This document shows, piece by piece, positions 18,428 through 33,495 of a stretch of 64,000 bases of DNA. The stretch covers positions 1,632,001 to 1,696,000 of the forward strand of contig CAXXQS010000002.1 in the NCBI GenBank assembly GCA_963674735.2. The letters run 5' to 3'. The translations under genes and the position numbers were made by a program. The notes under the pieces are model-generated. The model searched no databases. It was not told the origin of the DNA and worked only from the letters and a program-made list of their open reading frames with translations. Position 1 is the stretch's first letter, and every line of letters begins with the position of its first letter. This DNA comes from Myxococcota bacterium (GTDB lineage Bacteria > Myxococcota_A > SURF-8).

Positions 18428-18503
18428 GGGCCGGTAGCTCAGCTGGTAGAGCAGCGGACTTTTAATCCGTCGGTCGGGCGTTCGAATCGCCCCCGGCTCA
18501 CCA
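18428..18503 (+). tRNA. tRNA-Lys(UUU)
   Basis: 76-nt cloverleaf: TAGCTCAGCTGGTAGAGC D-arm, anticodon loop CT-TTT-AA, GTTCGAATC T-loop, encoded CCA. Confidence 0.97.
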
Positions 18504-18528: not shown

Positions 18529-18603
18529 GACCCCATCGTCTAGTGGTTAGGACACCGGCCTTTCACGCCGGCGGCGCGGGTTCAAGTCCCGCTGGGGTCG
18601 CCA
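18529..18603 (+). tRNA. tRNA-Glu(UUC), integration target
   Basis: GACCCCA...TGGGGTC acceptor stem, CCGGC-CTTTCAC-GCCGG anticodon arm, GTTCAAGTC T-loop, CCA. Confidence 0.97.
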
Positions 18604-18664
18604 ACTGTTCATAGCAGGCAGCATTTTCGGTTAACATACTGAAAATGCTGTTTGTTTTTTATGG
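18596..18664 (+). repeat. attL-type 69-bp direct repeat, copy 1
   Basis: GGTCGCCAACTGTTCATAGCAGGCAGCATTTTCGGTTAACATACTGAAAATGCTGTTTGTTTTTTATGG, identical to 31234-31302. The first 8 nt are the tRNA-Glu 3' end. Confidence 0.95.
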
Positions 18665-20075
18665 TTCCAAATTTCTCGCCGTCGAAGTCGATCCCACCTG
18701 TGAATAGGAGTTCCTGAAGTTTCACCCTCTCATCAAACTCCAGTGCTTCCCACAACTTACCGGCATTCATGACGATACGCTCAGCGAAGTCCAACGCGGA
18801 GTCGATATCCATGGTTCCGGAGTTCAGGCGGCCAAGTTCCCGCTCCACCTGTTCGATCTCGGCATCCAGTTCGATCTTCTTACTCTGGTAGGAGTCGTGG
18901 TCGATCTCTTCCTCGATGCGCAGATCGACAAGGCGGCTTTTTTTCTTCTTCAACTTTCGTAGATTGGCTTGCAGCCGTTTCTTGTGCTCCGTCCCTTCCG
19001 ACATGCGCTCCCGGTAGACATCCTTTACGATCTCGCGGAAGAGCCTCATATACTCCATCCTGGGCTTGATGCGGTTGATCTGCTCCAGGAACAGTTCTTC
19101 CATATTCTCCTTGCGGATGTTGACGGCCTTGCACTTGGTGTTCCGACAACGGTAGTAGGCATACTTCTTCCCACGGCCCGTACTCCACGACCCCGTGAGC
19201 GGTGTGCCGCATTTGGCGCAGCGTGTGAAGCGCCGGAGAGGGAAATCTTTGTTGTTCCGGTGGTGGGGGACATTCTGGTACGTGCGACCGTCCAGGATGG
19301 CCTGTACTTTCCGAAACAGATCTTCGGGGACGATGGGCTTGAAGTCGCCCTCGGTATCGATCTGGAAGCTCTCCAGGATCACACGACCGGCATATAACGG
19401 ATTGCGGAGCATGCGCCCGAAGGTCTGTGGATTGAGCTTGCCGCCCTTGGGGCTTGTGAAGCCGAGGGCATTGATCTTGTCCACAACCTGCTGCTTGGAA
19501 TACATGCGTTTGGCGAACAACTCAAAGCCTTTGCGGACAAGGTCGGCACACTCTGGATCATGAATAAGGCTCGGTCCCCCCTTCTTCCCATTGATATAGC
19601 CAATGGGAGCCTGATGGACCCATCGGCCATTCATGGCGGCTTCGAGCATGCCGGTTTTGGTCCGGTCGGAACGTAGGTCGTTATCAAGCTGAGCAAAGGT
19701 GGCGGCCATGTTTTCCATAGCCTTCCCCATCGGGCTGTCGTCGATGGGTTCGGTCACGGATCGAAGGGTAATGCCGAAGCTAGCCAGCTTGGCCTTCACT
19801 GCATGATGATCTTTGGCTTGGCGTGCAAAGCGACTCAGTTGGTAGACGACCAGAACACTAATGCGGCCCTTCGCCTTGCCGCAGTAGTCCAGCATGCGAA
19901 GAAGGGAACGACGGTTGGCGGTCTTGGCCGATTCGCCCTCCTCTACGAAGACCTTGTCCACCTCGTACCCGTTGCGCTCGCAATATTCCCGGCATAGGCG
20001 TTCCTGGCTTGTTAGACTGAAGTTGTCCACCTGTTCCTTCGATGACACCCGGCAATAGATAACGGCTCGTTCCAT
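18609..20075 (-). CDS. Large serine recombinase / integrase
   Basis: AVIYCRVSS catalytic Ser, EEGESAKT, LSRFAR, recombinase domain (APIGY...LRNPLYAG), Zn ribbon CAKCG...YYRC and coiled coil. Confidence 0.95.
   Translation of the reverse strand: MERAVIYCRVSSKEQVDNFSLTSQERLCREYCERNGYEVDKVFVEEGESAKTANRRSLLRMLDYCGKAKGRISVLVVYQLSRFARQAKDHHAVKAKLASFGITLRSVTEPIDDSPMGKAMENMAATFAQLDNDLRSDRTKTGMLEAAMNGRWVHQAPIGYINGKKGGPSLIHDPECADLVRKGFELFAKRMYSKQQVVDKINALGFTSPKGGKLNPQTFGRMLRNPLYAGRVILESFQIDTEGDFKPIVPEDLFRKVQAILDGRTYQNVPHHRNNKDFPLRRFTRCAKCGTPLTGSWSTGRGKKYAYYRCRNTKCKAVNIRKENMEELFLEQINRIKPRMEYMRLFREIVKDVYRERMSEGTEHKKRLQANLRKLKKKKSRLVDLRIEEEIDHDSYQSKKIELDAEIEQVERELGRLNSGTMDIDSALDFAERIVMNAGKLWEALEFDERVKLQELLFTGGIDFDGEKFGTIKNKQHFQYVNRKCCLL
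18619..18660 (+). terminator. Rho-independent terminator-like hairpin after the tRNA operon, inside the att repeat
   Basis: CAGCATTTTC...GAAAATGCTG 10-bp stem followed by TTTGTTTTTT. Confidence 0.7.
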
Positions 20076-20078
20076 GGG

Positions 20079-20399
20079 TCAGTTCCTCTGGCTCTCAATG
20101 TACTCGGTTATGGCCACCCGCTCCGCTTTTTCACGGCACATCCCCTTATCTTGTACCAGAGCGGCGGCGCGTTTTTCCACTTCCTCTTGCTCCTCCGGCG
20201 GCAGGCGTTTAAGAAACTCCTCAAATTCCTCGGATGCAACACCGACATCTACAGCATGATGCTGTTCGGTGTAAGCCGACACCACCACATGCGCCAGTTG
20301 ATACAGCGACTCCCGGATCTCGGTTAACTCTTCGTCCGAGACCGCCGCATCCGCTCCGAGGAGCTTTCTGCAACGATCAAGGCTAATAAGCATGACCAT
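20079..20399 (-). CDS. Small hypothetical protein directly upstream of the integrase
   Basis: 106-aa helical ORF abutting both the HTH gene and the integrase gene. Confidence 0.6.
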   Translation of the reverse strand: MVMLISLDRCRKLLGADAAVSDEELTEIRESLYQLAHVVVSAYTEQHHAVDVGVASEEFEEFLKRLPPEEQEEVEKRAAALVQDKGMCREKAERVAITEYIESQRN

Positions 20400-20624
20400 T
20401 TATTCATGCGCGCCTTGACCACGTAACCATTCCACCACATTGTCTCGGTAGAAGAGTATTCGACGACCAGCCCGGAAGTGGGGGATTTTTCCAGCAACAA
20501 CCATCGAGTACAACGTACGGGCATGAATGCCGAGATAATCAGCAAGCTGCTTCACAGACGAAACCTCGGGAAGTTGAGTGCTAGACTGGTTGTTCTGTTT
20601 GCTTTGTTTGGTGCTCATTTGCAT
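20400..20624 (-). CDS. Excisionase-like helix-turn-helix DNA-binding protein (HTH_17 type)
   Basis: SVKQLADYLGIHARTLYSMVVAGKIPHFRAGRRILFYRDNVVEWL. Confidence 0.88.
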   Translation of the reverse strand: MQMSTKQSKQNNQSSTQLPEVSSVKQLADYLGIHARTLYSMVVAGKIPHFRAGRRILFYRDNVVEWLRGQGAHE

Positions 20625-20987
20625 GTCCTTCCTGGAACACCAATCCCCATCCCTTACCCCGGGTCGGGTGGCGTCCCATTCTGAACATGCTGAACATGCA
20701 GGTCATGGTCCCGAATTACATCCCCCAAGCTGAAAACAAACTACCAAGATTACACTAAATTGTCAAGCTATCGATTCTATACAATATAGTCCCCAGCGGT
20801 TCTAAGCACCTTCCTCCGATGTTTTTTTTTCGGAGCAACACGAATTTTCAGTGAAATCGGGCATAAGGTCGATAGCGAACGAGCATTTACGACCTAAAAA
20901 AGAGACTCGAAAGTCTCTTCGCCGCGATGGAGACAGGGGCGGCTGAGGAATGGAGGCAGGAACGGTGGCGGGAGATTGGTGGGGTTA

Positions 20988-21185
20988 TCACTTGAACCGT
21001 TGCAAGATCGACTTGACCAACACGCGGGCGGCGGTCGCGCAAACTTCAACCATCAGGCGCTCTAACAATTGCACATCGGGGTCCTCTCCTTGAAAATTGA
21101 GTTCCGCGTCTGGCTCATAGTAAGGGTTCGACTCGAACTCACCATCGGAAGCAGGCGCTGGAGCTTTTGCGGTCAGGCGATCCAT
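20988..21185 (-). CDS. Small hypothetical protein
   Basis: 65-aa ORF starting 2 nt after the stop of the upstream gene. Confidence 0.4.
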   Translation of the reverse strand: MDRLTAKAPAPASDGEFESNPYYEPDAELNFQGEDPDVQLLERLMVEVCATAARVLVKSILQRFK

Positions 21186-21187
21186 GC

Positions 21188-21844
21188 CTATGCCTTTACT
21201 GGGACCGGCAACTCCGCTGCTTCAGCCAGATCGAGGCCCAGATCCAGCAGACGGCGGCTGGTCTTACTGACGGAGCAACCGACCGCCCCGGCGGTTTCGG
21301 CGAGCGAATGACCGACCTGGCGCATGGCCAGCATCGTTTGATCGTTTTCGGCCTGTTCATCCATCCACCGGCCCAGGTCGAGGCCGGATACCAGGTGAGC
21401 TTCCACATTGCGCGTTGCTTCAAAACTGATCGTGTCGAGGTAGTTCTGGATGCCGTGTTCATTGCCGGTCTTATGCAGCCCCTCTTCGTCGTCACCGATG
21501 CCATCCAAACGCAGAATCTCTGTTTCGCCGAGGAAGTAACACAGCTCGTTCATAACATCTCTGCGACGACCGGTGCCACCCACCCAGCGATGCGTATAGT
21601 CGATGGCGCCCATCTTTGCCGCGTGGACCAGCAGGGCGTCGTCCACGATCTCGTCCTGTTCAGCCTTGCGGCGGTAGAAGTCCCAGGCTACGGCCACGCC
21701 TTCACCAAACCGATCGTCGGGATCGGGATGGTTCGTTACGTGGCGCTGGATGGGATGAAACATGCCCGCGTTGAATTTCGCGGTGAATGCCTCGTTTACT
21801 GCGCTTGGGGTTTGAAATGGTGAGTCCGTTCTTGCAAGTTCCAT
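21188..21844 (-). CDS. Hypothetical protein with C-terminal sigma70 region-4-like HTH
   Basis: AGGAGG RBS before MELART. C-terminal DQTMLAMRQVGHSLAETAGAVGCSVSKTSRRL resembles a sigma-r4 HTH. Confidence 0.6.
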   Translation of the reverse strand: MELARTDSPFQTPSAVNEAFTAKFNAGMFHPIQRHVTNHPDPDDRFGEGVAVAWDFYRRKAEQDEIVDDALLVHAAKMGAIDYTHRWVGGTGRRRDVMNELCYFLGETEILRLDGIGDDEEGLHKTGNEHGIQNYLDTISFEATRNVEAHLVSGLDLGRWMDEQAENDQTMLAMRQVGHSLAETAGAVGCSVSKTSRRLLDLGLDLAEAAELPVPVKA

Positions 21845-22037
21845 CGTTTGCCTCCTGCCATGTTCAACGCACACGGAGGCCTTGCCCTGGCCCACGCGCG
21901 ACGTCGCCGCCTCTCGCGTGGGCGGTGGGGATGAATTTGCCTTCACAAAAAGAAATGGACATCAACTTACATCGATGCCCACATCTTTCTTATGACCGAT
22001 AATTGCTTAAAATTACTAACAGTTGTACTTAGGGCTT

Positions 22038-25000
22038 TCACCCATCCAGCACCTTCCGTACCATCTTGGCCAGATCTTGTGGCGTATAAGGTTTGCCGAT
22101 GAAGCTTAGACCTTCGTCCAACACACCATGATGGGCGATAACGTCCTCTGTATATCCGGATGTGTAAAGAACCTTCAGGTTCGGTATGATCGACTGGAGT
22201 TCTTCGGCCAATTCACGCCCGTTCATGCCGGGCATGACGATGTCGGTTACGAGCAGGTCTATTTCCAGATTCTCCTTCTTGACCTTGCTCAAAGCCATCG
22301 GACCGGAATCCGAACTATGGACTTTATAGCCTTGCCTTACAAGAATCTTGGTGGCGATGTTGCGCACCATACGCTCGTCTTCCACCAGAAGGACAGTTTC
22401 GCTCCCACTTGGAAGATCATCCATCTTGGTTTTTCTGGTAAGTGTTTCAGCTTTTTCCATGACAGCCGGGAAGGAAATGCGAAATATTGTCCCCTGGCCC
22501 GGTTCGGAATGGACTTCGATATGACCATCATGCTGCTTGACAATCCCGTAAACCATCGCCAGTCCCAAGCCGGTACCTTCGCCTTCTTTCTTTGTCGTGA
22601 AGAATGGATCGAATACCTTCTGCCGGGTGTCCTCATCCATACCCGCTCCATTGTCGGAGACGGTTAAAACAACATACTGGCCATGGGCAATCTTGGAGCA
22701 TGTTTCGCAACGCACATCCTCGAATGAAACATTGGCTGTCTCGATGGTCAGCTTGCCACCATTCGGCATAGCATCTCGCGCATTGACGGCCAGGTTTACC
22801 AAGATCTGTTCAAGTTGACCGGGATCGGCTTTGATGCGTCCCAGATCCCTTGTCGGAATGGTCATAAGTTCCAGATCTTCACCAATCAAGCGCCTTAACA
22901 TCTTGTGCATGTTGTCGATCAACTGATTCAGGTCGAGGACCTTCGGCTTGATGATTTGCTTGCGGCTAAATGCCAGAAGCTGGCGTGTCAGGCTTGCCGC
23001 GCTGTCCGCAGCTTGACCAATTTCCCCTAGTGATTCCAGCAGTGGGTCACCTGGAGAAAGATCCATCATGGCAAGGGACACATTACCTGTAATCCCGGTG
23101 AGCAGATTATTGAAATCATGAGCGACACCTCCGGCTAGACGGCCGACAGATTCCATTTTCTGGGATTGCTGAAGTTGCTCCTGTAGCCTTGCTTTCTCTT
23201 CCTCCGCTGCTTTCCGTTCCGTTATATCATCAATAATCCAGACAGCCCCAAGACTAAGGTCCGGCGGGGCAATGGCGCGACCATTGAACTGACACCATAC
23301 GGTGTGACCGTCCTTATGACGCAATGGATACTCCAATTGAACGATGTTGGTTTCACCGAGTCGCCAATAGTACTTCTCCCCGAATTCTTCAAAGTGCTTT
23401 TTAGAAAGATGGAGTTGTTCCGGTCCTTTGCCCTCCATTTCCTCCACCGAAAATCCCAGCATCTCCGCCATACGTGAATTGACTTTCGTGATGATCCTGT
23501 TGTGCAGCACCATGATGCCCACCATGCTGCTTTCCAGGATGGCGCTTTGCTCTTCGAGGTTGGATTTGAGTGATTGCTCGGCGAGTTTCAATTCAGAGAT
23601 GTCGGTATGCGTGCCAACCATTCGAATGGGTTTATCTTCCTTATCTCGTTCGACGACTTTTCCGCGACCGAGAATCCATTTCCATTCCCCGTTCTTCGTC
23701 TTCAGGCGAAACTCAACACCAAACGACTCTCTCTGGCTCTCAATATGCTGCTGGACGACCGATTGAGCATTATCTGCATCATCCGGGTTCAACAGGCTTT
23801 GCCATGTATCGAACGTCGACGGCAATTCTCCGGGTTCGTAACCCAACATCGTGAAATAGCGCGGACTGAAGTATACTTCCCCTGTCACAATATTCCAGTC
23901 CCACAGCCCATCAGCAGTGGCTGTGAGGGCGTATGACAATCTTTCCTCGCTGGCTCTAAGCGCCTCTTCAGCCCGCCTGCTCTCGGTAATATCCCTGAAT
24001 TCGACAGTCCTGACCTGTTTTCCTTTATATGGGATATTTCTGGCTTCAAGTCTTAAAGGATACTCTTCTCCATTCTTCCGCAAGCCGATAGCCTCATAAG
24101 GTTTTTCATACCCGGTCATGATTTTTTCCATGACCAATTCCCGTTTCGATTCGGCAATAAGCAACAGGCCATCCATGCCGATCAATTCATCCAGGGAGTA
24201 TCCGGTCATCTCGGACATGCCCTGATTGCACTCAAGAATTCTTCCCTTGTCGTGAATGGCAATACCACCGAATGAAGCATTGTGGAGGGATCGAAAACGC
24301 TCTTCGCTCTCTTGTAGAGCATTTTCCGCCTCTTTACGATCCGTGATCTCGCGATTTACCCCAATGATACCGATTGCCTCCCCTTGATCATCGCGCAGGA
24401 AAGAAACCGTTGACTCTACCGGATAGGTGGTGCCATCGGAACGATACATGTCAAGTTCGATGGTTATGGCGGTTGATGGATCAAGCTCCCCCGCCCGTTC
24501 TGATTGTAAATACTGCTGAAGTCTGTCCAATGAAAGCGCGACGGATTCCGGCGTCATGCTTTCCTGCAATGGCTGGTTCAGTTTTTCTTCTACGGAAAAC
24601 CCGCTTTGCTTCTTGATGGAAGGGCTGATGTAAGTGAGATTCAGGTCCAAATCACGAATCCATATGACATCGGAGATGTTGTCGGCCAGCAAACGATATT
24701 TCTTTTCACTTTCCACTATCGCTTTTTGACTGAGTTTCTGATCCGTGATGTCGAAGTTGACACCGATCATGCGAACGGACTGACCTTTCTCCTCTTTGAC
24801 AACCGCTGCATAGGCTTTTATATATTTTACCGTCTCATCAGGCCAGACTACCCGGAATTCAGATTCGAAATTTTCACCCGTTCGAATGGAGTCTTCCACC
24901 TCTCGACTTGCCCGCTCCACATCATCAGGATGAACTCCTTGTAGCCATGTTTCGTAGGCACCGCCAAAACCACTAGGACGGAGACCGTACAACTCGAACA

Positions 25001-28000
25001 TACGCTCGTCCCATTCGAGGTGGTTTTCAATCAAATCAAGATCCCAAATACCGAGTTTTGCCGATTCTTTCGCTAATGTAATTCTTTGATACGCCACTTT
25101 CAGTTTCTGTTCGAATCGGCGACGCTCCGTCATATCTCGCGCAATGCCGATTACCCGCTCGCCTTCATGTGTGTCAAGCACGGAGATGGTGATCTCCACC
25201 GGGTATGTCGTACCATCTTTACGCTTATGATTTGAGTCGTGGCTCATTCTACGGGTTTCAAACAACTCTCGGAAGATGGCATCAAGCGCGTCTTTCGACA
25301 CCGTCTCGGCATCGATATCCGTAATGTTCATGGAGAGCAATTCATCCCGGCTGTAGCCGCTGTCTCGACTGGCTTGAGCATTGACCTGGATGATAGCTCC
25401 CGTTTTATCACTGATGTAGATGGCGTCTGCAGCATTGTCGAGAAAAGCCTGAAGGCGCTCGTTGGTCTCTTTCAGTTCAAGGTCTTTACGTTTTCTTTCG
25501 GTAATATCTCTGGCAAAAACCGTGAACTTCTGCTGGTCTGGAAGATACGTAGTGGAGATTTCAACATCAATGATTCGACCATCTTTCCGCCTGTGACGCG
25601 CTTCGAACCGGGACGACCCGGTTTTCTTGATCTCTTCGGCATGTCGCGCTGTATCTTCGGGATCTTCATCGACATCAATATCCGTGATGGTCATTTCCAA
25701 CACTTCATCTATGGAGTAGCCGAGCATATCAGCGAAGGCCTGATTGACTTCAAGGCAATGACCTTCCGCATCCATCAGCCAGAAACCGTCCATGGTCGTT
25801 TGGATTACGGATTGCGCCTGCTGATACAGCACCTCGTATTCCTCAGCAAGTTCCCGATGCCTGATATTACTTTCCTTTAGCTTTTTCTCTGCATGCTTGC
25901 GTTCTGAAATATCCCGACCGATACTGAGAAAGCAGGATTGACCATCCCACATGATTGGCTTGACTGAAGTCTCTATAGGTAAAACGGAGCCGTCTTTTCG
26001 AAAGTGTCCCACCTCAAAAGTGGATTCACCCGTTTCCATGATCTCCCGGATTCGCGCATCAATTTTTTCCTCACTCTCCGGTACATCCAACTCGTGTAAA
26101 TTGATGGAAAAGAACTCTTCTGGCGCATAGCCGTGAAGCTCGAATGTCTTCCGGTTGGCGTAAACAAAGTTCCCTTCAGAATCATGTACCGTGATGGTAT
26201 TCGGCGCTGAATCTACCATTTCCGCCAGAACCCGATTGCGTTCCTCGGCCTCTATATGCTCGGTAATGTCCTGATGGTTCCCTATCATGCGCACGGCCTC
26301 GCCTTCCGGAGTGCGTTCAACAACGCGAGCGCTGGCCCGTATCCGACGATACTCGCCGCTCTTTGTCCGCAGGCGGAATTCGTTTTCGTAGGTATCGGAT
26401 TTTGTTTCCAGGTATTCGGAAGCCGCTGAAAGGGCGCGATCCAGATCGTCTGGGTGGATCAGCGCTTTCCAGTTTTCAAAATCGGCAGGAAACTCATCCG
26501 GTTCGTAACCGAGCATCGTGTAATATTTGGGACTGAAGGAGAGTTCGTTGGTGATGAAATTCCACTTCCATATACCGTCAGTTGTCGCGTCAACGGTAAG
26601 TTCGAGTTCTCTTTGATATTCCTGAATGCGCTTTTCAGCCCCTATCCGTTCGGAAATATCTTGTACCGTTGCAAGTATCCGGGTTGGCTGACCCTCTTCT
26701 CGTGCAATCGTCCCTTCTACATGCACGTGGATAACCACACCATCTTTCCGAACAATCCGATATTCATTGGGAGTGAGCCTGTTTTTGCCGGAAGCAACAT
26801 TTTCTTCAAGCCAGACCTGAATACGCTCCAGGTCGTCAGGATGATGAACCTCGGCATTCACTTTCGCATAGTCGAGTATTTCACCTTCGCTATATCCCAT
26901 CAGAGTTTGCATTCCAGGAGACCAGGAAACCTTTCCGGTTTCCACCTCCCACATGACATCACCCATTCTGGCGATGTATTGAGAAGCTATCAGCCGTTTT
27001 TCGCTTTCTTGAAGTGCTTCCTCGGCCAGTCTCTGCTCGCTAGTGTCCTCGTACACCGCCACGATCTGTCCGTTGGGAAGTCGATATACCGTATTCTCGA
27101 CCCACTCACGGATGCGATTGTCTTTGTAAGTTCTTAGCGGCAGATGCAGGGTTTTACCGGTGCGATAAACCTCCTGGAATATCTCGAATAAGCCGATATC
27201 CTTGATTCCAGGAAAAACCTCCGTGACCCTTTTGCCGATAATCTCATCCCGGGCAACCTTGCTGTGCTTCTCTCCCGCCGGATTGATATCAACAAAGACA
27301 AAATCTTTGCCATCATCAATCGGCTGGTAAACGGCAACGCAGCTTGCAATCGTATTGAATAAGCCATGGAAGCTACTTTCTCGTTCCGCAAGATTTTGCT
27401 CTGCTTTTCTTTGGTCTGTTGTGTCTTGCCCGTTTACGTTGACATAGATAACCTTACCGTTCTCATCGAAAATCGGCTTGTAAATTCGTGGTCCAAATTT
27501 TCGATTTCCATTGAAATCGAAAAAATAAACCTCATCGGTTACGATTTCTCCCTTTAAGGCACGCTCAAGTGATTTTCTGGAAGTCTCCTCTGCCCCTGAA
27601 TCGAAATCCCACCAGGGAGCCAGAGCAAATTCTTTGCCGATTACCTTAAATCGAGGCGTTTGTGTGACTTCAAAACACAGCTCATTGGCATCAGCGACCA
27701 TACCATTCGGGTCGATAAGCATGTTGAATTGGAAAGATTGATCGAAGGCCAATTTAAATCGCAGATCCTTTTCGCGTACTTTAAGCTCTGCTTCTTTGCG
27801 TTCCGTAATATCAACATTAGCGCCTAAATATCCGGTGATTTCCCCATTTTCATCAGTAAGGGCCACCGCCGATCCTAAAACCCAAGAAACTTTTCCTTCC
27901 GGGGTGCAAAAGCGATACTCCATATTCCAGGGTTTGTGCTGATTCGCGTGCTCATTCCAGAGCTTGAAGATTCTTTCCTTATCTTCAGAATATAAACCAT

Positions 28001-29474
28001 CCTGCCATCCGTCTCCCAAGGATTCTTCTAACGACAGACCGGCCAAGTCCCTCCATTTCTTGTTGACATAGAGACAGCGACCAGTCCGGTCTGTTTCGTA
28101 AATGGCAATGGGCGAGGATTCGGCCAGCGTCGAAAAACGCTTCTCACTTTTTCTTATAGCTTCTTCAGCGTGCTTTTTCTCGGTGATATCGTGAAGCGTT
28201 ACAAACACTTGGTAAGGCGAGTCCTCCCCTTGCCTGAACATCGGTATGGCGTTGATGATCGTCCAAACGAAATCCTGTTTTAACGGGTTGAATACAGCCA
28301 AAACCTCATTTTCTACCGATTTACCTGTCTGCAAAGCGATCACGGATGGATGTAGATCCCCAGGTACTTCGTCACCATTTTCATTCACGACTCGCCAATC
28401 TGGATGCATGGACGTGCGGCCCATAAACTGGTCGCGCGTCAGTCCCCACATGTCAAGCAAGGCCGAATTGCAGTCCGCAAGGGAGCCATCTGCAAGCTGA
28501 TAAAAAGCCCCCTGGGTCATGTTTTCAAACAACGAACGATACTTGGCTTCATTTTCCGCAAAGTCTGCTTCGGCTTTTTTTCGAGCTGAAATATCGTGTG
28601 AAATAATTTGAACGCCGGCAATTTCTGCATCAGATCGAGATATCTTCGTGTAGATGCTCAGGAACCATAGCTTCCCAATTGGTAGGTCGACGCAATCCTC
28701 ATATTCTTCCGGGCCATCAGCTTTGATTGCGGAGTTGATTCGTTTCATGTATTCAGTGCCAGCTTCTGCTGGGAAGAGATCGTTAATCGATTTGCCAATG
28801 AAATCTTGTGGCGCTCCACCCATTCGCTCTGCTGCTACTTTATTGAATGAGAGAACTGTTCCAGCAGGTGAAAAATAGCCGATGCCTATCCCCGCAGTAT
28901 CATAAAGGAGGCGAAATTTCTCTTCGCTTTCCCGTGTATTGTTTTCTGTTTGTTTTCTTTCTGTAATATCGATATGGGAGCCTCGCATGTAGCTTGGCTT
29001 TTGGTTTTTGTCGGCAAAAACGGATGCTTGAGCCAGAATCCAGCGGTAGGAACCATCCTTGTGACGGAATCTGAATTCGACCTGATAATCTTGCAGTAAC
29101 TTATCAATACAATCCTGGACTTGCTCCATGAGTAGCCCAATGTCATCCGGATGAACACGGCTCTCAAATTCTTTGAATTCATTTCCTAATTCGTCCGGCT
29201 CATAGCCAATTTGACGCTTCCATTCATCAGAGAAATCGACCTTGTTTGTCTTCAGGTTCCAGTCCCATAAACCGACCTTTCCTGCTTTTGCTGCCTGAGT
29301 TTCTCGCCAATGAGCTTCCCGCTCAATCTCTTCGATCCTTTGGCGAGCGGATTCAAGCTCCTCAATCAGCTGGGCTTTGGTTTTCTGTTGATCTGACACA
29401 ATGGCCCCCATTGCTTGATGCCATACTTCCCTGAAAATACAGCGAAAATACTTTTCCCTACTGCGATCAAACAT
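22038..29474 (-). CDS. Cytoplasmic hybrid sensor histidine kinase/response regulator with 16 tandem PAS domains
   Basis: 16 PAS/PAC units ending in DITERK-like motifs, then H-box [14 protein letters not shown]-box [11 protein letters not shown]-boxes (DNGAGM, FFTTK, GTGLGL) and a REC domain ([16 protein letters not shown]). The true start may be about 29411 or slightly downstream. Confidence 0.95.
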
Positions 29475-29933
29475 TTTACAACGACGTTAGATAAAAGGAC
29501 AAGTAAAAGTAGGAAAACAGGGCATTAATCGGCTGCTTGTCCGGATTCGGCGTAGCGCAAAAACCGTGCCGTTGGGTAACCTTACGGGCGCTTGGAGTTA
29601 CCCCCGAAATGGCCCAAAAATGTGCCCAGTTGAAAGCCGATATAGCTTCAAAACTGCACAAACTGGGGGGTGTTGCACAATGCTCCCGCCCGCTCGCCAT
29701 CACCTCGATCTCGCCCGCAAGCTGGCGATAATTTCCCCCAAAAAAATCCTCGCATGCTCACGAACCAGGTGGATCAATATTTTTCCGCCTCTTTGAGGGC
29801 TTACACTGAGTGTAACCACCAGGGTCCCCTTTCCAACGCCATAGCCCTTCAGGCGGGCGAGGGCTTGCACACTTCTTGGGGGTAGACCACGCTTCCCAAG
29901 CAACCACCTCGCGCCAGGCTGTATTCTTTTTCG

Positions 29934-30032
29934 AGGGGGAGGCGTCTGCCTCCCCCTACGATACCCCCTCCGATCGGGGGACACCCCCGAACCCCCGGCG
30001 CCTTCGCTTTGTCTAACGCCACGCGAAGGCGC
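29934..30032. other. Hairpin cluster, candidate rolling-circle double-strand origin
   Basis: Perfect 10-bp stems at 29934-29957 (AGGGGGAGGC/GCCTCCCCCT) and 29998-30032 (GCGCCTTCGC/GCGAAGGCGC, 15-nt loop), immediately 3' of rep. Confidence 0.45.
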
Positions 30033-30067
30033 GCAAGAATCAAGAAAAAAAACCAAGCTGCCATCTT

Positions 30068-30925
30068 TCAATCCTCCTCAACCTCCGGACTCCACGCACT
30101 GCCCCACATCAGGAGCAGATTGCGATGCTGGAGGCCTTGATGGAGCTGCAACAGGTGTTCTAATGATGCCTGAGAAGGCTCCTCAGAAGGCTGTGGGCAC
30201 CTCGTAACGGCTTTCATGGCATACTTTGCAAACCCCTCTGCATTCCAAGGCTGTAAATAGCGATCTCGATGCGGAACAAACCATGCACGCGATCCGAGAA
30301 GGCCGTGCCACTGGTCATCGACCCAGAGTGGATCAAACTCATCCGTCACATCCAGAACGACATGCGAATGAACATTCCAGGCCCGTCTATCACGAGTAAG
30401 CGGCACCTCGATTGCACTGATACCACCTTGCACCATCTCCATGAAGCGCTTACGGCGCCTGAGCGTCTTCTGGGCGGTGCGGAAATCATCAAGCGTTTCC
30501 CGCAGATCCCAACGGCATTTCGACCTGAGCTCAAAAATGAAAATCTGAGGCCGTTTCATTCGTTTCAAAGCTCGGAGCACCTTCTGCGCGTTCTCCTGCG
30601 CCACACGCTCAGCACAAATTGGACAGAGGCGGCGGTTGCATTGTGTTCGTTGCGGGATGCCATTGTAGAGCTGGATGGTCCCGCACCGGCGGACCTGTGA
30701 GGCGTATGACAGCAGACCAATTTGCTCCAATTCCTGCGCCCGAATCTCCTGAACGGCATCCACATCATCACCTACAAACTCAGTGGAATAGTCTGCTCTG
30801 TACACATCTTTATTATTCCCCGTCGATCTAAAATTCGCTCCGCACAAATTTCGAGCGGCATCCATCGCTCTGGTTGCTTTCTGGTTTTGGATATCCATCT
30901 CGCGCTCCTTTTTCGGAGCGGTCAT
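30068..30925 (-). CDS. Rolling-circle replication initiator (HUH endonuclease, Rep_1/pC194-like)
   Basis: N-terminal Cys cluster (RRCGT...CNRRLCPIC), GGISAIEV, HUH-like motif WNVHSHVVL and catalytic Tyr motif AKYAMK. Confidence 0.8.
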   Translation of the reverse strand: MTAPKKEREMDIQNQKATRAMDAARNLCGANFRSTGNNKDVYRADYSTEFVGDDVDAVQEIRAQELEQIGLLSYASQVRRCGTIQLYNGIPQRTQCNRRLCPICAERVAQENAQKVLRALKRMKRPQIFIFELRSKCRWDLRETLDDFRTAQKTLRRRKRFMEMVQGGISAIEVPLTRDRRAWNVHSHVVLDVTDEFDPLWVDDQWHGLLGSRAWFVPHRDRYLQPWNAEGFAKYAMKAVTRCPQPSEEPSQASLEHLLQLHQGLQHRNLLLMWGSAWSPEVEED

Positions 30926-31098
30926 GGCAGAAACACAGCAGGAAAAGTGCTTGAGCGAAAAGGCTCAATTCAGTATAATGATTACATTCCCGCCTTGCGC
31001 TACGTCTGCCAGGACCGCAAGGTTATCACCGCCCCTGCCAGGGCGGTTTTCTCGTTCAGGCTTCCGCTTCCGTTCTCAAGGCACACCGGTCCATCGCT

Positions 31099-31275
31099 TC
31101 ATCCCCTCGCTTCTTCTTGTTCGGTGATTAAGTGCCAGAAATCACGGCGGTTCTTGGCCTCGAAAAGAGACGCCTTAAGCATCTCCATACTGTCGAGCCA
31201 GTCGTCAATCTGTTTCCAAGTCAGCGTCTCGTCGGTCGCCAACTGTTCATAGCAGGCAGCATTTTCGGTTAACAT
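31099..31275 (-). other. Open reading stretch crossing attR, a possible alternative C-terminal tail of the integrase
   Basis: MLTENAACYEQLATDETLTWKQIDDWLDSMEMLKASLFEAKNRRDFWHLITEQEEARG* begins inside the repeat and runs into the element end. Confidence 0.5.
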
Positions 31276-31302
31276 ACTGAAAATGCTGTTTGTTTTTTAT
31301 GG
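31234..31302 (+). repeat. attR-type 69-bp direct repeat, copy 2
   Basis: Identical to 18596-18664. Confidence 0.95.
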
Positions 31303-31364: not shown

Positions 31365-32963
31365 TCACTCCGATTCCCTATTGTCGGCGTTGACGGTGAT
31401 TTGGTATTCGCCGTTTACGTCGACATCCAAGCGCCAGCCCCCCGTTACGCGTTGTGCTGTAACTTTTTCAATGCCGATGCCGGTTACCTGGGGGTCGGGT
31501 TCCGATTCCGATTGGGATGGAAACCAGATATCCGCCGTCGAAATACGATCCGTAGAGCCGGCGACGACCAGATTCCCCTCACAGGCGTCTTCTCCAATTG
31601 AAATCAAAAGCCCGGGAACGGCTCTGGGGTAGGCGCGTTCCATGCAACGTGTCGGCGGTTTTGAGTAGCGTCTGGTGTATTCCTCGTCGTCGCACCTTTC
31701 TAGCTGTTGGGTGAGCCAATCCGGAGTGGGGGGGTGTTGTGCGTCATGTGGGTCGCCGCAACGCTGTTCCCATTGCCACCAGGCACTGCCCGCCCCGGGA
31801 TAGTGGTCTTCTCCGGCGGCGAAACGTGCCATCCAGGCTTCATCTTTTTCCTGGTCGGAGAAGGTGCCGTATTCCCCGATCCAGATGCTGACGCCGCCGT
31901 ATTGCTCCCCCAACAAGGCGTAAAGGCCGAAGGATCTGTCGAGCAGGCCTTCTCCTTGCACGATGGACTCCATGTAATTGTGTGGGGCGAAAACCAGGTT
32001 GGGGTCGTCGCTTAAATCAAAATCGGGGAGCATCGCATAGACGCTCGGTTCATAGAAAATCACGTGTCCTTTCGATCCGGTTTCGGCTTCCGCTTTTCGA
32101 ATGGACGCAATTGCCGATCGATAGAAAGCCGTCAATCCCTCAACGGTTGTGTCGGTTCCGTTGCCCGGCTCATTGATCAGATCATACCCGGCGACCCCGG
32201 GTTCGTGGGCGAATTCAGTTGCGATGCGTCCCCAAAGCTCGGCCAATTCATCGCGAATACCGTCCCGATTGGTGTAAAAATTGTCCCAGGCGCGGATGAC
32301 CGCCGGACTGTCTTCCCGGCTGCCAGGCGTGCAGGTAGGTTCGTTATCCGTGAAGGTTGCCCATTCGGGAGCGCCATCCCAGCCCTTTTGGTGTTTGGTT
32401 CCCTCCGGACAGACTTCATCCGCCGGAGTGAATACGACCTTCGACCAGGCGTCCTGGTGCATGTCGATTACGACGTACATATCGTGGGCATTTGCTTCGG
32501 CGATGGCTGCGCGGACTTTTGCCAGGTATTCCTCGTCGAATCGGTCCCGTTCCGGTTCCCAAAACGACCATGACGTCACCAGTCGAATGACATTGATCCC
32601 GAAGGAGGCGGCCTCGTCCCAGTCATCCTCTCCTAGCTCGGCCACCGTCGGAAGCGAAGGATGAACCTGGAAGTAGTCACCCAGGTGGTTGAAATTTACG
32701 CCGCGCAACAGGACTTGGCGGTCACGTGCATCGAAGATTCCGGGGTGGTCGCCACGTTGGGCCGTCAACCAGGGTAAGGACGTTACCGTTTCCTGGTCGC
32801 CATCCGATTCTTTCTCAATCTCCAGGTCCGAATCGGATTCGTCCCCGTCGGTACGGCTGTCTCCATCAAGCGGTTGATCGTCGTTCTCGGACGCATTGGA
32901 GCTGCACCCGATGATTAATGCCGCCAACAATATGAAGAGAGGGAGATGTTTTCGAATCCACAT
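31365..32963 (-). CDS. Glycoside hydrolase family 5 lipoprotein (endoglycoceramidase-like)
   Basis: Lipobox IIGC, acidic DGD linker, RQVLLRGVN, IDMHQDAWS, DGAPEWAT, YDLINEP (acid/base Glu) and WIGEYG (nucleophile Glu). Confidence 0.88.
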   Translation of the reverse strand: MWIRKHLPLFILLAALIIGCSSNASENDDQPLDGDSRTDGDESDSDLEIEKESDGDQETVTSLPWLTAQRGDHPGIFDARDRQVLLRGVNFNHLGDYFQVHPSLPTVAELGEDDWDEAASFGINVIRLVTSWSFWEPERDRFDEEYLAKVRAAIAEANAHDMYVVIDMHQDAWSKVVFTPADEVCPEGTKHQKGWDGAPEWATFTDNEPTCTPGSREDSPAVIRAWDNFYTNRDGIRDELAELWGRIATEFAHEPGVAGYDLINEPGNGTDTTVEGLTAFYRSAIASIRKAEAETGSKGHVIFYEPSVYAMLPDFDLSDDPNLVFAPHNYMESIVQGEGLLDRSFGLYALLGEQYGGVSIWIGEYGTFSDQEKDEAWMARFAAGEDHYPGAGSAWWQWEQRCGDPHDAQHPPTPDWLTQQLERCDDEEYTRRYSKPPTRCMERAYPRAVPGLLISIGEDACEGNLVVAGSTDRISTADIWFPSQSESEPDPQVTGIGIEKVTAQRVTGGWRLDVDVNGEYQITVNADNRESE

Positions 32964-32985
32964 CCTTGAAAGTCCTTTATGCGAG

Positions 32986-33495
32986 TTAACGTTTTTTCTT
33001 CGTTCCGTCGGCTGGGGGCTGGTAACGGTGGAAAGTGGGGAAGACGGCGTTGACATGGTCGCGATAGTGCCGGTAGGTCTTGCCGAAACGACGTTCCAGG
33101 TAAGCGTCTTCCTCGCCGATCAGGCTGCGGAAGATGGTGTACATGGCGATGGGGATCGTTAAGGCAAGCCAGCTTTGGACGAAAAGGGAGAGTGCCGGGA
33201 TGATGAAGATCACGAAGGCGGCGTAGAGCGGATGGCGAAAGCGGCCGTAAACGCTGCGCGTGATCAATTTGTCCTGCTCGTAATCTTCCACAATGGTCGC
33301 AGCGGATAGGACCCACAACGGGATTCCGACCAGTAACAGCAGGACACCCGCATAGACTAGTAAAACGCCGGGAATCAGCGTGATCTTGAACATCGGGTAG
33401 GTCGCGATGTGCAAGCCGATGGCGAGAGCGGCGTAAAAAAGAGTTCCCGCTGCCAGTTTTCCACCGATACCCCAGAGGCTCATGCGTTTGCCCAT
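32986..33495 (-). CDS. Isoprenylcysteine carboxyl methyltransferase / PEMT family membrane protein
   Basis: TM helices, LIT..VYGRFRHPLY and EEDAYL..RFG..Y..Y motifs. Confidence 0.85.
   Translation of the reverse strand: MGKRMSLWGIGGKLAAGTLFYAALAIGLHIATYPMFKITLIPGVLLVYAGVLLLLVGIPLWVLSAATIVEDYEQDKLITRSVYGRFRHPLYAAFVIFIIPALSLFVQSWLALTIPIAMYTIFRSLIGEEDAYLERRFGKTYRHYRDHVNAVFPTFHRYQPPADGTKKKR

Follow-up and report, generated by a model that had tools for sequence, protein, structure and literature searches.

We analysed a 64,000-nt stretch of contig CAXXQS010000002.1 from a Myxococcota bacterium (positions 1,632,001 to 1,696,000, forward strand; hereafter, the window) and found that 12,638 bp of it most likely, with a probability of roughly 0.7, constitute a site-specific integrative island. 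This island would have been inserted at the 3′ end of a tRNA-Glu(UUC) gene by its own large serine recombinase (LSR), its excised circle would most likely be copied by a replication initiator (Rep) of the HUH type, and a giant kinase gene would be its cargo. The original prediction, made from the letters of the window without database searches, had paired an LSR with a rolling-circle Rep in a tRNA-Glu-integrated element devoid of transfer genes. The target and the ends of the island, with the locus L001 standing for a sister element described below, are:

18428..18503, plus strand: tRNA-Lys(UUU), found by ARAGORN; first gene of the two-tRNA target unit, the same Lys-Glu pair flanking L001.
18529..18603, plus strand: tRNA-Glu(UUC), found by ARAGORN; the intact integration target, forming the B arm of attL.
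18596..18664, no strand: attL copy of a 69-bp repeat, from the repeat search and the alignment of the L001 junctions.
31029..31247, no strand: conserved P-arm region, from blastn and alignment; 86% identical to L001 over 220 nt.
31234..31302, no strand: attR copy of the 69-bp repeat, in which the core is followed by a second, 56-bp P′-arm copy; the flank beyond it is unrelated.

The two copies of the 69-nt direct repeat (18596-18664 and 31234-31302) are exact and spaced by 12,638 bp. A 32-nt part of the repeat occurs exactly twice in the 5.26-Mb genome, compared to zero occurrences of the reversed control. Overlap with tRNA-Glu is limited to the last 8 nt of the gene. The first ~14 nt of the repeat (18596-18609) are the likely crossover zone in attL. 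Beyond them lie 55-56 nt of the element's P′ arm, which include the LSR gene's 3′ end together with a terminator-like hairpin; the hairpin and its T-run are positioned suitably for termination of the tRNA operon after integration. At the island's other end, the identity of the P-arm region to L001 (86%, DNA) far exceeds that of the adjacent rep gene (37%, protein). A hexamer, CAAGTC, is separated from TCGCCA by 9 nt in the B arm (tRNA) and by 13 nt in the P arm (18571-18603 versus 31209-31241). Outward displacement of a recognition motif in attP relative to attB is the known pattern for large serine integrases.

The approximate position of the core was read from a comparison with L001, a locus in a metagenome-assembled genome of Myxococcota from the same family and a different genus. 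The L001 LSR is 93% identical to the window LSR and is convergent to the same tRNA-Lys/tRNA-Glu pair. Other identities between the two elements were 51% for the small protein o106, 35% for the putative regulator o252, 37% for Rep and 89% for the P-arm tail peptide ORF58. The cargo of L001 is a 1,123-aa protein with an FGE-sulfatase domain, and its far flank is unrelated to that of the window. In a four-junction alignment, attL and attR of L001 shared only TCGCCAACTGTT, ~12 nt, and past these bases attR continued into a different, native-looking terminator. Other members of the LSR clade share 11-16 nt between their ends. Because the L001 ends have only these bases in common while the LSRs and P arms of both elements are nearly the same, the alignment places the crossover at the tRNA end of the window repeat, and the full 69 bp do not form the recombination core. 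The extra 56 nt at the window attR duplicate the element's own P′ arm, and this duplication would explain why the 69-nt identity is an exception among the short cores of the clade. We also considered the repeat as an identity segment of the tyrosine-integrase style, and rejected this, since the element has no tyrosine recombinase and the long identity is absent from L001. As to the original prediction, its exact repeats at the tRNA-Glu 3′ end agreed with both the coordinates and the genome-wide copy count. Its claim of an integrative element was supported by L001, which combines the same tRNA and backbone with a different cargo and an unrelated far flank.

The integration module and the peptide encoded in the P arm comprise the following genes.

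18609..20075, minus strand: LSR, 488 aa as assembled; Pfam and PHROGs matches, 93% identity to L001.
20079..20399, minus strand: o106, small acidic protein directly upstream of the LSR; 51% identity to L001.
20400..20624, minus strand: HTH_17 protein of the excisionase family, with a helix-turn-helix (HTH) domain; HTH_17 match at 4.2e-14, TIGR01764 'excise' match at 49.3 bits against a cut-off of 28.8.
31099..31275, minus strand: ORF58, P-arm-encoded peptide; 89% identity to L001:1900-2043.

The LSR matched three Pfam families, Resolvase (PF00239, 1.2e-34, residues 4-152), Recombinase (PF07508, 8.9e-13) and Zn_ribbon_recom (PF13408, 4.1e-11), and the PHROGs integrase family phrog_95 (9.2e-102). 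Its catalytic motif reads YCRVSSKEQ, with R9, V10 and S11 invariant in nine clade members. By its domains, its R-x-S motif and the short shared core, the protein is thus identifiable as a large serine recombinase. Relatives at E<=1e-50 were present in 12 of 401 genomes of the phylum. Among the 11 further phylum loci, tRNA-Glu (UUC or CUC) adjoined the LSR in seven, tRNA-Val in one and no tRNA in three. We extended the comparison across phyla by searching a species-representative collection with a profile of nine LSR members and taking the best 80 of 518 confirmed relatives. These loci came from Myxococcota, Acidobacteriota, Bacteroidota, Patescibacteria, Gammaproteobacteria and others, and they repeat three known loci (L048 = L001, L049 = L033, L058 = L034). 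Sixty-three loci were usable, i.e., they covered the C-terminus of the LSR and 150 nt or more downstream of it. A convergent tRNA gene was found within 250 nt in 49 of the 63, and none in the remaining 14. The tRNA types were Glu (30 loci), Arg (9), Leu (4), Met (2), Phe (2), Lys (1) and Ala (1).

The LSR reading frame passed the 3′ end of the tRNA gene in all 49 loci, by 29-117 nt (most commonly 40), and it entered the tRNA in eight of 10 phylum loci, the other two being truncated genes. Since the frame crosses the tRNA 3′ end in 49 of 49 loci, the attachment core is located inside the LSR coding sequence throughout the clade. Integration would consequently exchange the C-terminal tail of the LSR, its last ~15-45 codons. 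We modelled the excised junction by script at loci where attR was found: in the modelled circle, the LSR frame entered the P arm and ended after 20-48 codons. The resulting tails share a motif, S/T-W-N/K-Q/E-hydrophobic-x-x-W, in the window/L001 lineage, L036, L037 (four copies), L053, L054 and L055. The first codons of the tail coincide with the enzyme-bound P half-site, so that conservation of the DNA site could explain part of the peptide conservation. The attR candidates in L033/L049, L080, L106 and L110 look like chance matches and were not used. Metagenome contigs yielded LSR relatives at two loci only, L044 at tRNA-Glu(CUC) and L045. Within L045:1-170, an LSR 3′ end of the window subtype is followed by a 23-nt tRNA-Glu fragment and then by AT-rich unrelated DNA; this could represent an internal junction within a tandem array, or else an attP-like site.

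We tentatively propose, at rather less than even odds, that only the excised circle encodes the full-length LSR, which would end in a conserved amphipathic tail, that integration would swap in residues read antisense to the tRNA, and that this tail swap together with the conserved o106 would form a built-in switch of directionality or activity. In 19 of the 80 cross-phylum loci, a single-sequence search detected an o106 homologue immediately upstream of the LSR, the conserved part being the N-terminal ~45 aa. No family match to o106 was found in Pfam, PHROGs or NCBIfam, and its best Atlas score (0.80) was uninformative. Because the HTH_17 gene is not conserved beside the LSR in relatives and o106 is, o106 is the better clade-wide candidate for a recombination directionality or accessory factor, ahead of the HTH_17 protein. 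A search with ORF58 for longer fused proteins gave seven candidates, none at E<=0.01, which is weak evidence. The predicted complex of the LSR with ORF58 scored 0.11 against a mark of 0.34.

The window copy of the LSR differs from its relatives in one respect. The T-run at 18650-18655 comprises six residues in the window (T6) and five (T5) in L001, L045, L008 and L013; as a result, the window LSR frame stops 6 nt before the tRNA. The first 18 residues of ORF58 match the C-terminus of the L001 LSR. The counterpart of ORF58 in relatives is the C-terminal tail of the excised form of the LSR, whereas in the window the T6 frameshift leaves it as an overlapping ORF of its own. The region is covered by three runs from a single study, as assembled contigs. 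In run X2, contigs with a variant one base shorter at 18655 accounted for 10.9 of 18.3 depth, and T6 may reflect a genuine frameshift, variation within the population or an error in the homopolymer. The LSR mRNA reads A-AAA-AAC within 18640-18660, and 3 nt later comes a strong hairpin that is the tRNA terminator's complement. This arrangement resembles a slippery site with a stimulator, and the tail frame needs a +1 shift or a one-base deletion in the transcript; recoding at the A-run of the LSR is only a thought.

The putative replication module consists of the rep gene and the stretch downstream of it.

30068..30925, minus strand: Rep_1-like HUH endonuclease, 285 aa; Pfam match, motif alignment and predicted fold.
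29475..30067, no strand: stretch that looks non-coding, downstream of rep, and is a candidate for an origin or terminator, from the inverted-repeat search.

Rep matched Pfam Rep_1 (PF01446) with 47 bits against a cut-off of 33.2; its relatives scored 28.9-35.6 bits, some of them under the cut-off. An exhaustive HMMER search yielded 823 homologues at E<=1e-3 and 131 at E<=1e-10. In an alignment of 86 sequences, C96, C101, C104, H186 and H188 were invariant, and C81, E173, Y235 and K238 were conserved in at least 90%. These residues form a Cys cluster (C81/C96/C101/C104), an HUH motif (H186-S-H188) and a downstream YxxK motif (Y235/K238). The AlphaFold (AF2) model of Rep reached a mean predicted local distance difference test score of 88.7 and a predicted template modelling score of 0.78. 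The best Foldseek rows for the model were circovirus Rep nuclease domains (E 2.1e-3). VIA-align placed the SIRV1 ORF119 Rep first (Z 8.8, root-mean-square deviation 3.8, 112 aligned residues), followed by AAV5 Rep (Z 7.0), Helitron (Z 6.9) and pMV158 RepB (Z 6.6), with parvovirus NS1 and the geminivirus and nanovirus Reps also at Z 6-7. The expectation that Rep would model as an HUH endonuclease therefore held, given the confident model, the HUH and YxxK motifs, the Pfam match and the Rep-type fold matches. The stretch 29475..30067 contains two GC-rich hairpins (29934-29957 and 29998-30032); the ORFs o75 and o123 within it have low-complexity translations and no family match, and look spurious.

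Rep relatives are rare in the phylum. A word-indexed search matched only the protein itself, closer alignment against genome contigs gave three loci, and the family was present in four of the 401 phylum genomes, the window's own included. Outside the window, we examined six Rep loci: three cassettes with a tyrosine integrase, the LSR sister element, and two loci (L038 and L039) with no integrase within about 8 kb. In the cassettes (L040, L041 and L130), the tyrosine integrase is followed by an HTH_17 protein or a small ORF and then by Rep, and a tRNA gene lies beside the integrase in L040 and L041. From these contexts, the Rep relatives are probably replication or mobilisation modules of integrative elements. 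The second paralogue in the same genome (L039, contig 2, 1534064-1534723) is Rep_1-like, 31-33% identical, and located ~98 kb before the window. Its neighbours encode Lcl_C, HEPN RiboL-PSP, C-5 DNA methylase and HATPase_c_3 proteins, with no integrase or tRNA within ~8-10 kb.

All genes enclosed by the repeats are on the minus strand. Besides those already named, the island and its flank include:

20988..21185, minus strand: o65, small ORF from the ORF list, coding status uncertain; no family match and no homologue found.
21188..21946, minus strand: o252, backbone protein and putative regulator, 252 aa; 35% identity to L001:3939-4700.
22038..29474, minus strand: cargo, multi-PAS hybrid histidine kinase, 2,478 aa, from Pfam and the GC profile.
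31365-33056, minus strand: GH5 cellulase gene in the flank beyond attR, from Pfam.

According to Pfam, the kinase has 11-13 PAS domains, HisKA, HATPase_c and a receiver. Its gene takes up 7,437 of the 12,638 bp (59% of the island), and the backbone without cargo measures ~5 kb. The GC content of the kinase gene (0.45-0.51) is below that of the backbone; the flanks are at 0.54-0.58. A counterpart of the kinase is absent from the sister element. The o252 protein itself had no Pfam or NCBIfam match; its L001 homologue gave a sub-threshold sigma70-ECF match (22.8 bits against a cut-off of 42.9), and Sigma70_r4 occurred in 12-59% of the members of its nearest Atlas clusters. A C-terminal HTH of the sigma-70 region-4-like type is a lead only. 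One contig from a second sample (run X3) joins 20907 to 26210 and skips 5,302 bp comprising o65, o252 and the C-terminal half of the kinase; the junction reflects either an island deletion variant or an assembly chimera.

The gene content of the original prediction was largely confirmed. The LSR, the Xis-like HTH protein, the small ORFs and the Rep_1-like protein inside the repeats were supported by Pfam and TIGR01764 matches. The genes that it named are present, but its list omitted the 2,478-aa kinase. The ORF that it described as a sigma-r4-like HTH protein stands, while the label, with no direct family match, is again a lead at most. Relaxase, type IV secretion system, capsid and terminase families, of which it had seen no recognisable gene, were likewise missing from 26 ORFs (11 + 15) scanned with Pfam and from eight ORFs scanned with PHROGs. 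The self-replication and the dependence on a helper that it had suggested are still putative.

Loci related to the island point to repeated insertion at the same tRNA genes. L008 and L013 carry P′-arm footprints downstream of tRNA-Glu, consisting of the hairpin and ~30 nt of LSR 3′ coding sequence with no LSR gene. In L037 (G050), four tandem P-arm copies, each encoding a ~23-aa tail, follow one LSR at 5.4, 6.9, 10.1 and 10.9 kb from tRNA-Glu(CUC), which looks like an array of accreted, LSR-less elements. In L036, a second LSR abuts attR. In view of these footprints, tandem P arms and the second LSR, accretion and decay are common at these tRNAs. The long repeat of the window is accordingly best read as the product of integration beside what was left of a previous or tandem copy of this element, and the perfect identity of its copies argues for a recent copy of the same lineage. 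As a speculation, a rolling-circle dimer that was integrated and then partly deleted would also fit the 56-bp copy.

We infer how the 56-bp copy arose, along with excision, replication and transfer, and propose the following course of events. The LSR would have inserted the island at the tRNA-Glu 3′ end by a crossover in TCGCCA and a few further bases. The integration module would consist of o106, the LSR and attP, the last lying within the 3′ end of the LSR gene, and the P′ arm would supply a new terminator to the tRNA operon. Together with o106, and perhaps the HTH protein, the LSR would excise the island as a circle. Rep would nick an origin on this circle and initiate rolling-circle copying, as in pSAM2-type elements, after which the circle would re-integrate at a tRNA-Glu. 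Nicking by Rep could in addition deliver single strands to a transfer apparatus provided in trans. The second P′ arm at attR would be a leftover of the earlier or tandem copy, and hence a matter of history, not of mechanism. The window copy may be crippled, as the extra T ends its LSR before the core.

Several observations weigh against this account. Set against every intact relative, the assembled LSR is truncated, and this copy may therefore be immobile. The run contigs break at 18625/18635 and at 31234-31302, and the circle junction and the empty site are neither shown nor excluded by them. Contig depth was alike inside (6.2-11.9) and outside (4.9-12.7) the island, although such depths are not copy numbers. 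The exact 69/69 identity of the repeat copies is unexpected for an old relic. For Rep, the Rep_1 match spans profile positions 6-119 of 253, the first half only. Its fold matches are modest, with no Foldseek row at E<=1e-3 and VIA-align Z-scores of 7-9 in the common range, and ferredoxin-like ribosomal and ACT domains score among them. No solved relative of Rep was found by sequence, the profile search against PDB sequences giving one irrelevant match (E 0.3). Searches of the element for nick motifs and inverted repeats identified no replication origin. CTTGATA, which we take to be the pC194-type nick motif, was not found near rep; it occurs six times in the window against 3.9 expected, and the only copy in the element is inside the LSR gene. 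Finally, the Rep profile matched one of the 80 LSR-clade loci, the sister element only. Because of this rarity, and because other islands of the clade carry other genes (MerR-like genes and defence genes among them), the integration and replication modules are shuffled independently, which fits the 93% identity of the LSRs against 37% of the Reps between the sister elements. The right flank of the island was next to a tRNA-Glu in none of 40 relatives, none of the same genus, that we screened for an empty site.

Three other explanations were weighed. The island may be an immobilised remnant that arrived by means of its LSR and is now fixed through the lost frame across the core, the repeats and Rep being leftovers. 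We regard this as somewhat unlikely, and it is not exclusive of the integrative island proposed above. The window LSR does end 6 nt before the tRNA where eight of 10 phylum relatives and 49 of 49 cross-phylum relatives read 29-117 nt in, the T6 of the window corresponds to T5 in relatives and relics, and decayed LSRs or footprints are frequent in the clade (L024, L025, L008, L013). On the other hand, the other backbone ORFs and the cargo gene are all intact, the repeats are 100% identical, and the 488-aa LSR retains all three catalytic and DNA-binding domains. The shorter variant in the X2 contigs further suggests that T6 may stem from variation in the population or from misassembly of the homopolymer.

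A less probable alternative, which we consider unlikely, is an integrative mobilizable element (IME) in which Rep would act mainly as a non-canonical relaxase nicking an oriT, a conjugative helper would export the strand, and replication would be secondary. The island carries its own integration/excision module and no mating-pore genes, as an IME does. In the more distant island L042 of the same clade, a MobA/VirD2 relaxase and a NikA-like protein lie beside the LSR, where Rep-type functions would sit. The Rep-family island L130 (8395-9315) also encodes a protein with an ArdC-N anti-restriction domain, typical of DNA entering single-stranded, along with a small resolvase; this hints that such elements may enter cells as single strands. 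Against a relaxase role stands the motif order of Rep, since in HUH enzymes HUH before Tyr marks the Rep class and not the Mob class. In addition, no oriT or coupling protein was found in the element, and the host genome (94% complete) had no match to VirB4 (PF03135) or a MobA/VirD2 relaxase, its one match to a type IV coupling protein (T4CP) being weak (22.8 bits). As outlined in PMC5357655, streptococcal IMEs mostly have relaxases related to rolling-circle initiators, and in some Firmicute plasmids PF01446 Reps act in replication as well as in mobilisation.

A phage-related origin, as a helper-packaged satellite or a filamentous (inovirus-like) prophage of the phiRSM type, is very improbable. 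In the phiRSM type, too, a serine recombinase occurs together with a rolling-circle Rep and a target in a tRNA gene, phiRSM1 being integrated at tRNA-Ser through a serine recombinase (cited in PMC3218068). Siphovirus proviruses of Thermotogota are described as having serine recombinases at tRNA-Glu (bioRxiv 10.1101/2020.11.07.368316), and the size of about 5 kb without cargo is a further point in favour. However, neither the Zot-like ATPase and small coat proteins that characterise inovirus-like elements nor any capsid, terminase, portal or packaging-redirection family was found in the 26 ORFs, with the limit that profiles can miss short coat proteins and so cannot exclude them. The sister element also lacks such genes, and no LSR relative was detected in the viral contig collection.

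Two further regions of the host genome were recorded. A mobile-gene-rich region of contig 1 (~552000-592000, L046 and L047) has two tyrosine integrases, two serine recombinases, a MazF-like toxin, Replic_Relax, a weakly T4CP-like 782-aa ORF, DUF5131 and type I restriction-modification genes; no VirB4 was found in it. A second tRNA-Glu gene (CUC; contig 1, 1408936-1409010) is unoccupied, is followed by an ordinary GC-rich terminator and is a natural candidate attB.

For the insertion of large DNA, serine integrases are the principal tools, and a clade spanning many phyla that targets tRNA 3′ ends, mostly of tRNA-Glu, provides landing sites that are conserved and ready for use in bacteria that have received little study. 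If the tail swap does control direction, it would be a new and simple way for a serine integrase to tell the integrated from the free state. The island also illustrates how a 2,478-aa sensor kinase can travel between genomes as cargo of a 5-kb backbone.

Among known systems, the island is close to the actinomycete integrative and conjugative elements (AICEs), in which, according to PMC3218068, serine recombinases, rolling-circle Reps and tRNA targets are combined, some Mycobacterium AICEs having serine recombinases at tRNA-Leu. In pSAM2, an int-xis-rep element covered by the same source, RepSA nicks the double-strand origin and drives rolling-circle replication. The pairing of an LSR with a rolling-circle Rep at a tRNA, the headline of the original prediction, is rare in the LSR clade, but it has precedent. 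Like AICEs, the island holds an integrase and a replication initiator within att-bounded DNA, with the integrase beside attP at one end, an excisionase-type HTH protein, an HUH initiator and a tRNA 3′ end as target. Unlike AICEs, it has no FtsK/SpoIIIE Tra (no PF01580 or other ATPase family was found in the 26 ORFs), its Rep matches Pfam Rep_1, RepSA being absent from its family matches, its host belongs to Myxococcota, and its cargo is located between rep and the integration module.

With Streptococcus IMEs, as presented in PMC5357655 and PMC5704250, the island shares its small size, a terminal integrase that faces outward, an HUH protein of the Rep-like type as its sole DNA-processing enzyme, the lack of mating-pore genes and tandem accretion with decayed elements. 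The serine integrases of those IMEs insert inside protein-coding genes with very short repeats, however, and their Rep-like relaxases belong to PF02486 or PF01719 and not to PF01446; for the island, no helper was found in the host genome. Group 1 proviruses of Thermotogota resemble the window clade in that a serine recombinase adjoins tRNA-Glu, with relatives at other tRNAs (bioRxiv 10.1101/2020.11.07.368316). They are ~40-kb tailed-phage genomes, whereas the island is non-viral, and the two sets of recombinases are likened by target, not by homology. The pC194/pUB110 initiators have in common with the island Rep a Pfam Rep_1 match above the cut-off and an HUH motif before a single YxxK tyrosine. 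The island Rep differs in matching half of the profile, in its N-terminal Cys4 cluster and in that the nick motif CTTGATA was not found near rep, and its gene is chromosomally integrated together with a recombinase.

Placement of attP within the integrase gene is known from IntP of the Myxococcus xanthus phage Mx8 and from SSV-type archaeal integrases, where integration rewrites (Mx8) or splits (SSV) the gene (PMC6070905, PMC4383910, PMC8371274). Those enzymes are tyrosine recombinases, whereas the LSR clade would swap only the last ~15-45 codons; by analogy, the proposed switch would be the serine-recombinase counterpart of Mx8 IntP/IntX. The literature searched, as far as its texts were accessible, held no description of a serine integrase gene spanning attP, though supplements of integrase catalogues may list such sites. 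Among the natural targets of serine integrases, tRNA genes have long been said to be excluded (PMC4383910) or rare (PMC3218068). Taken together, the island is real, well bounded and of largely known kinds, AICE- or IME-like, and its unusual point is the clade-wide placement of attP inside a serine integrase gene.

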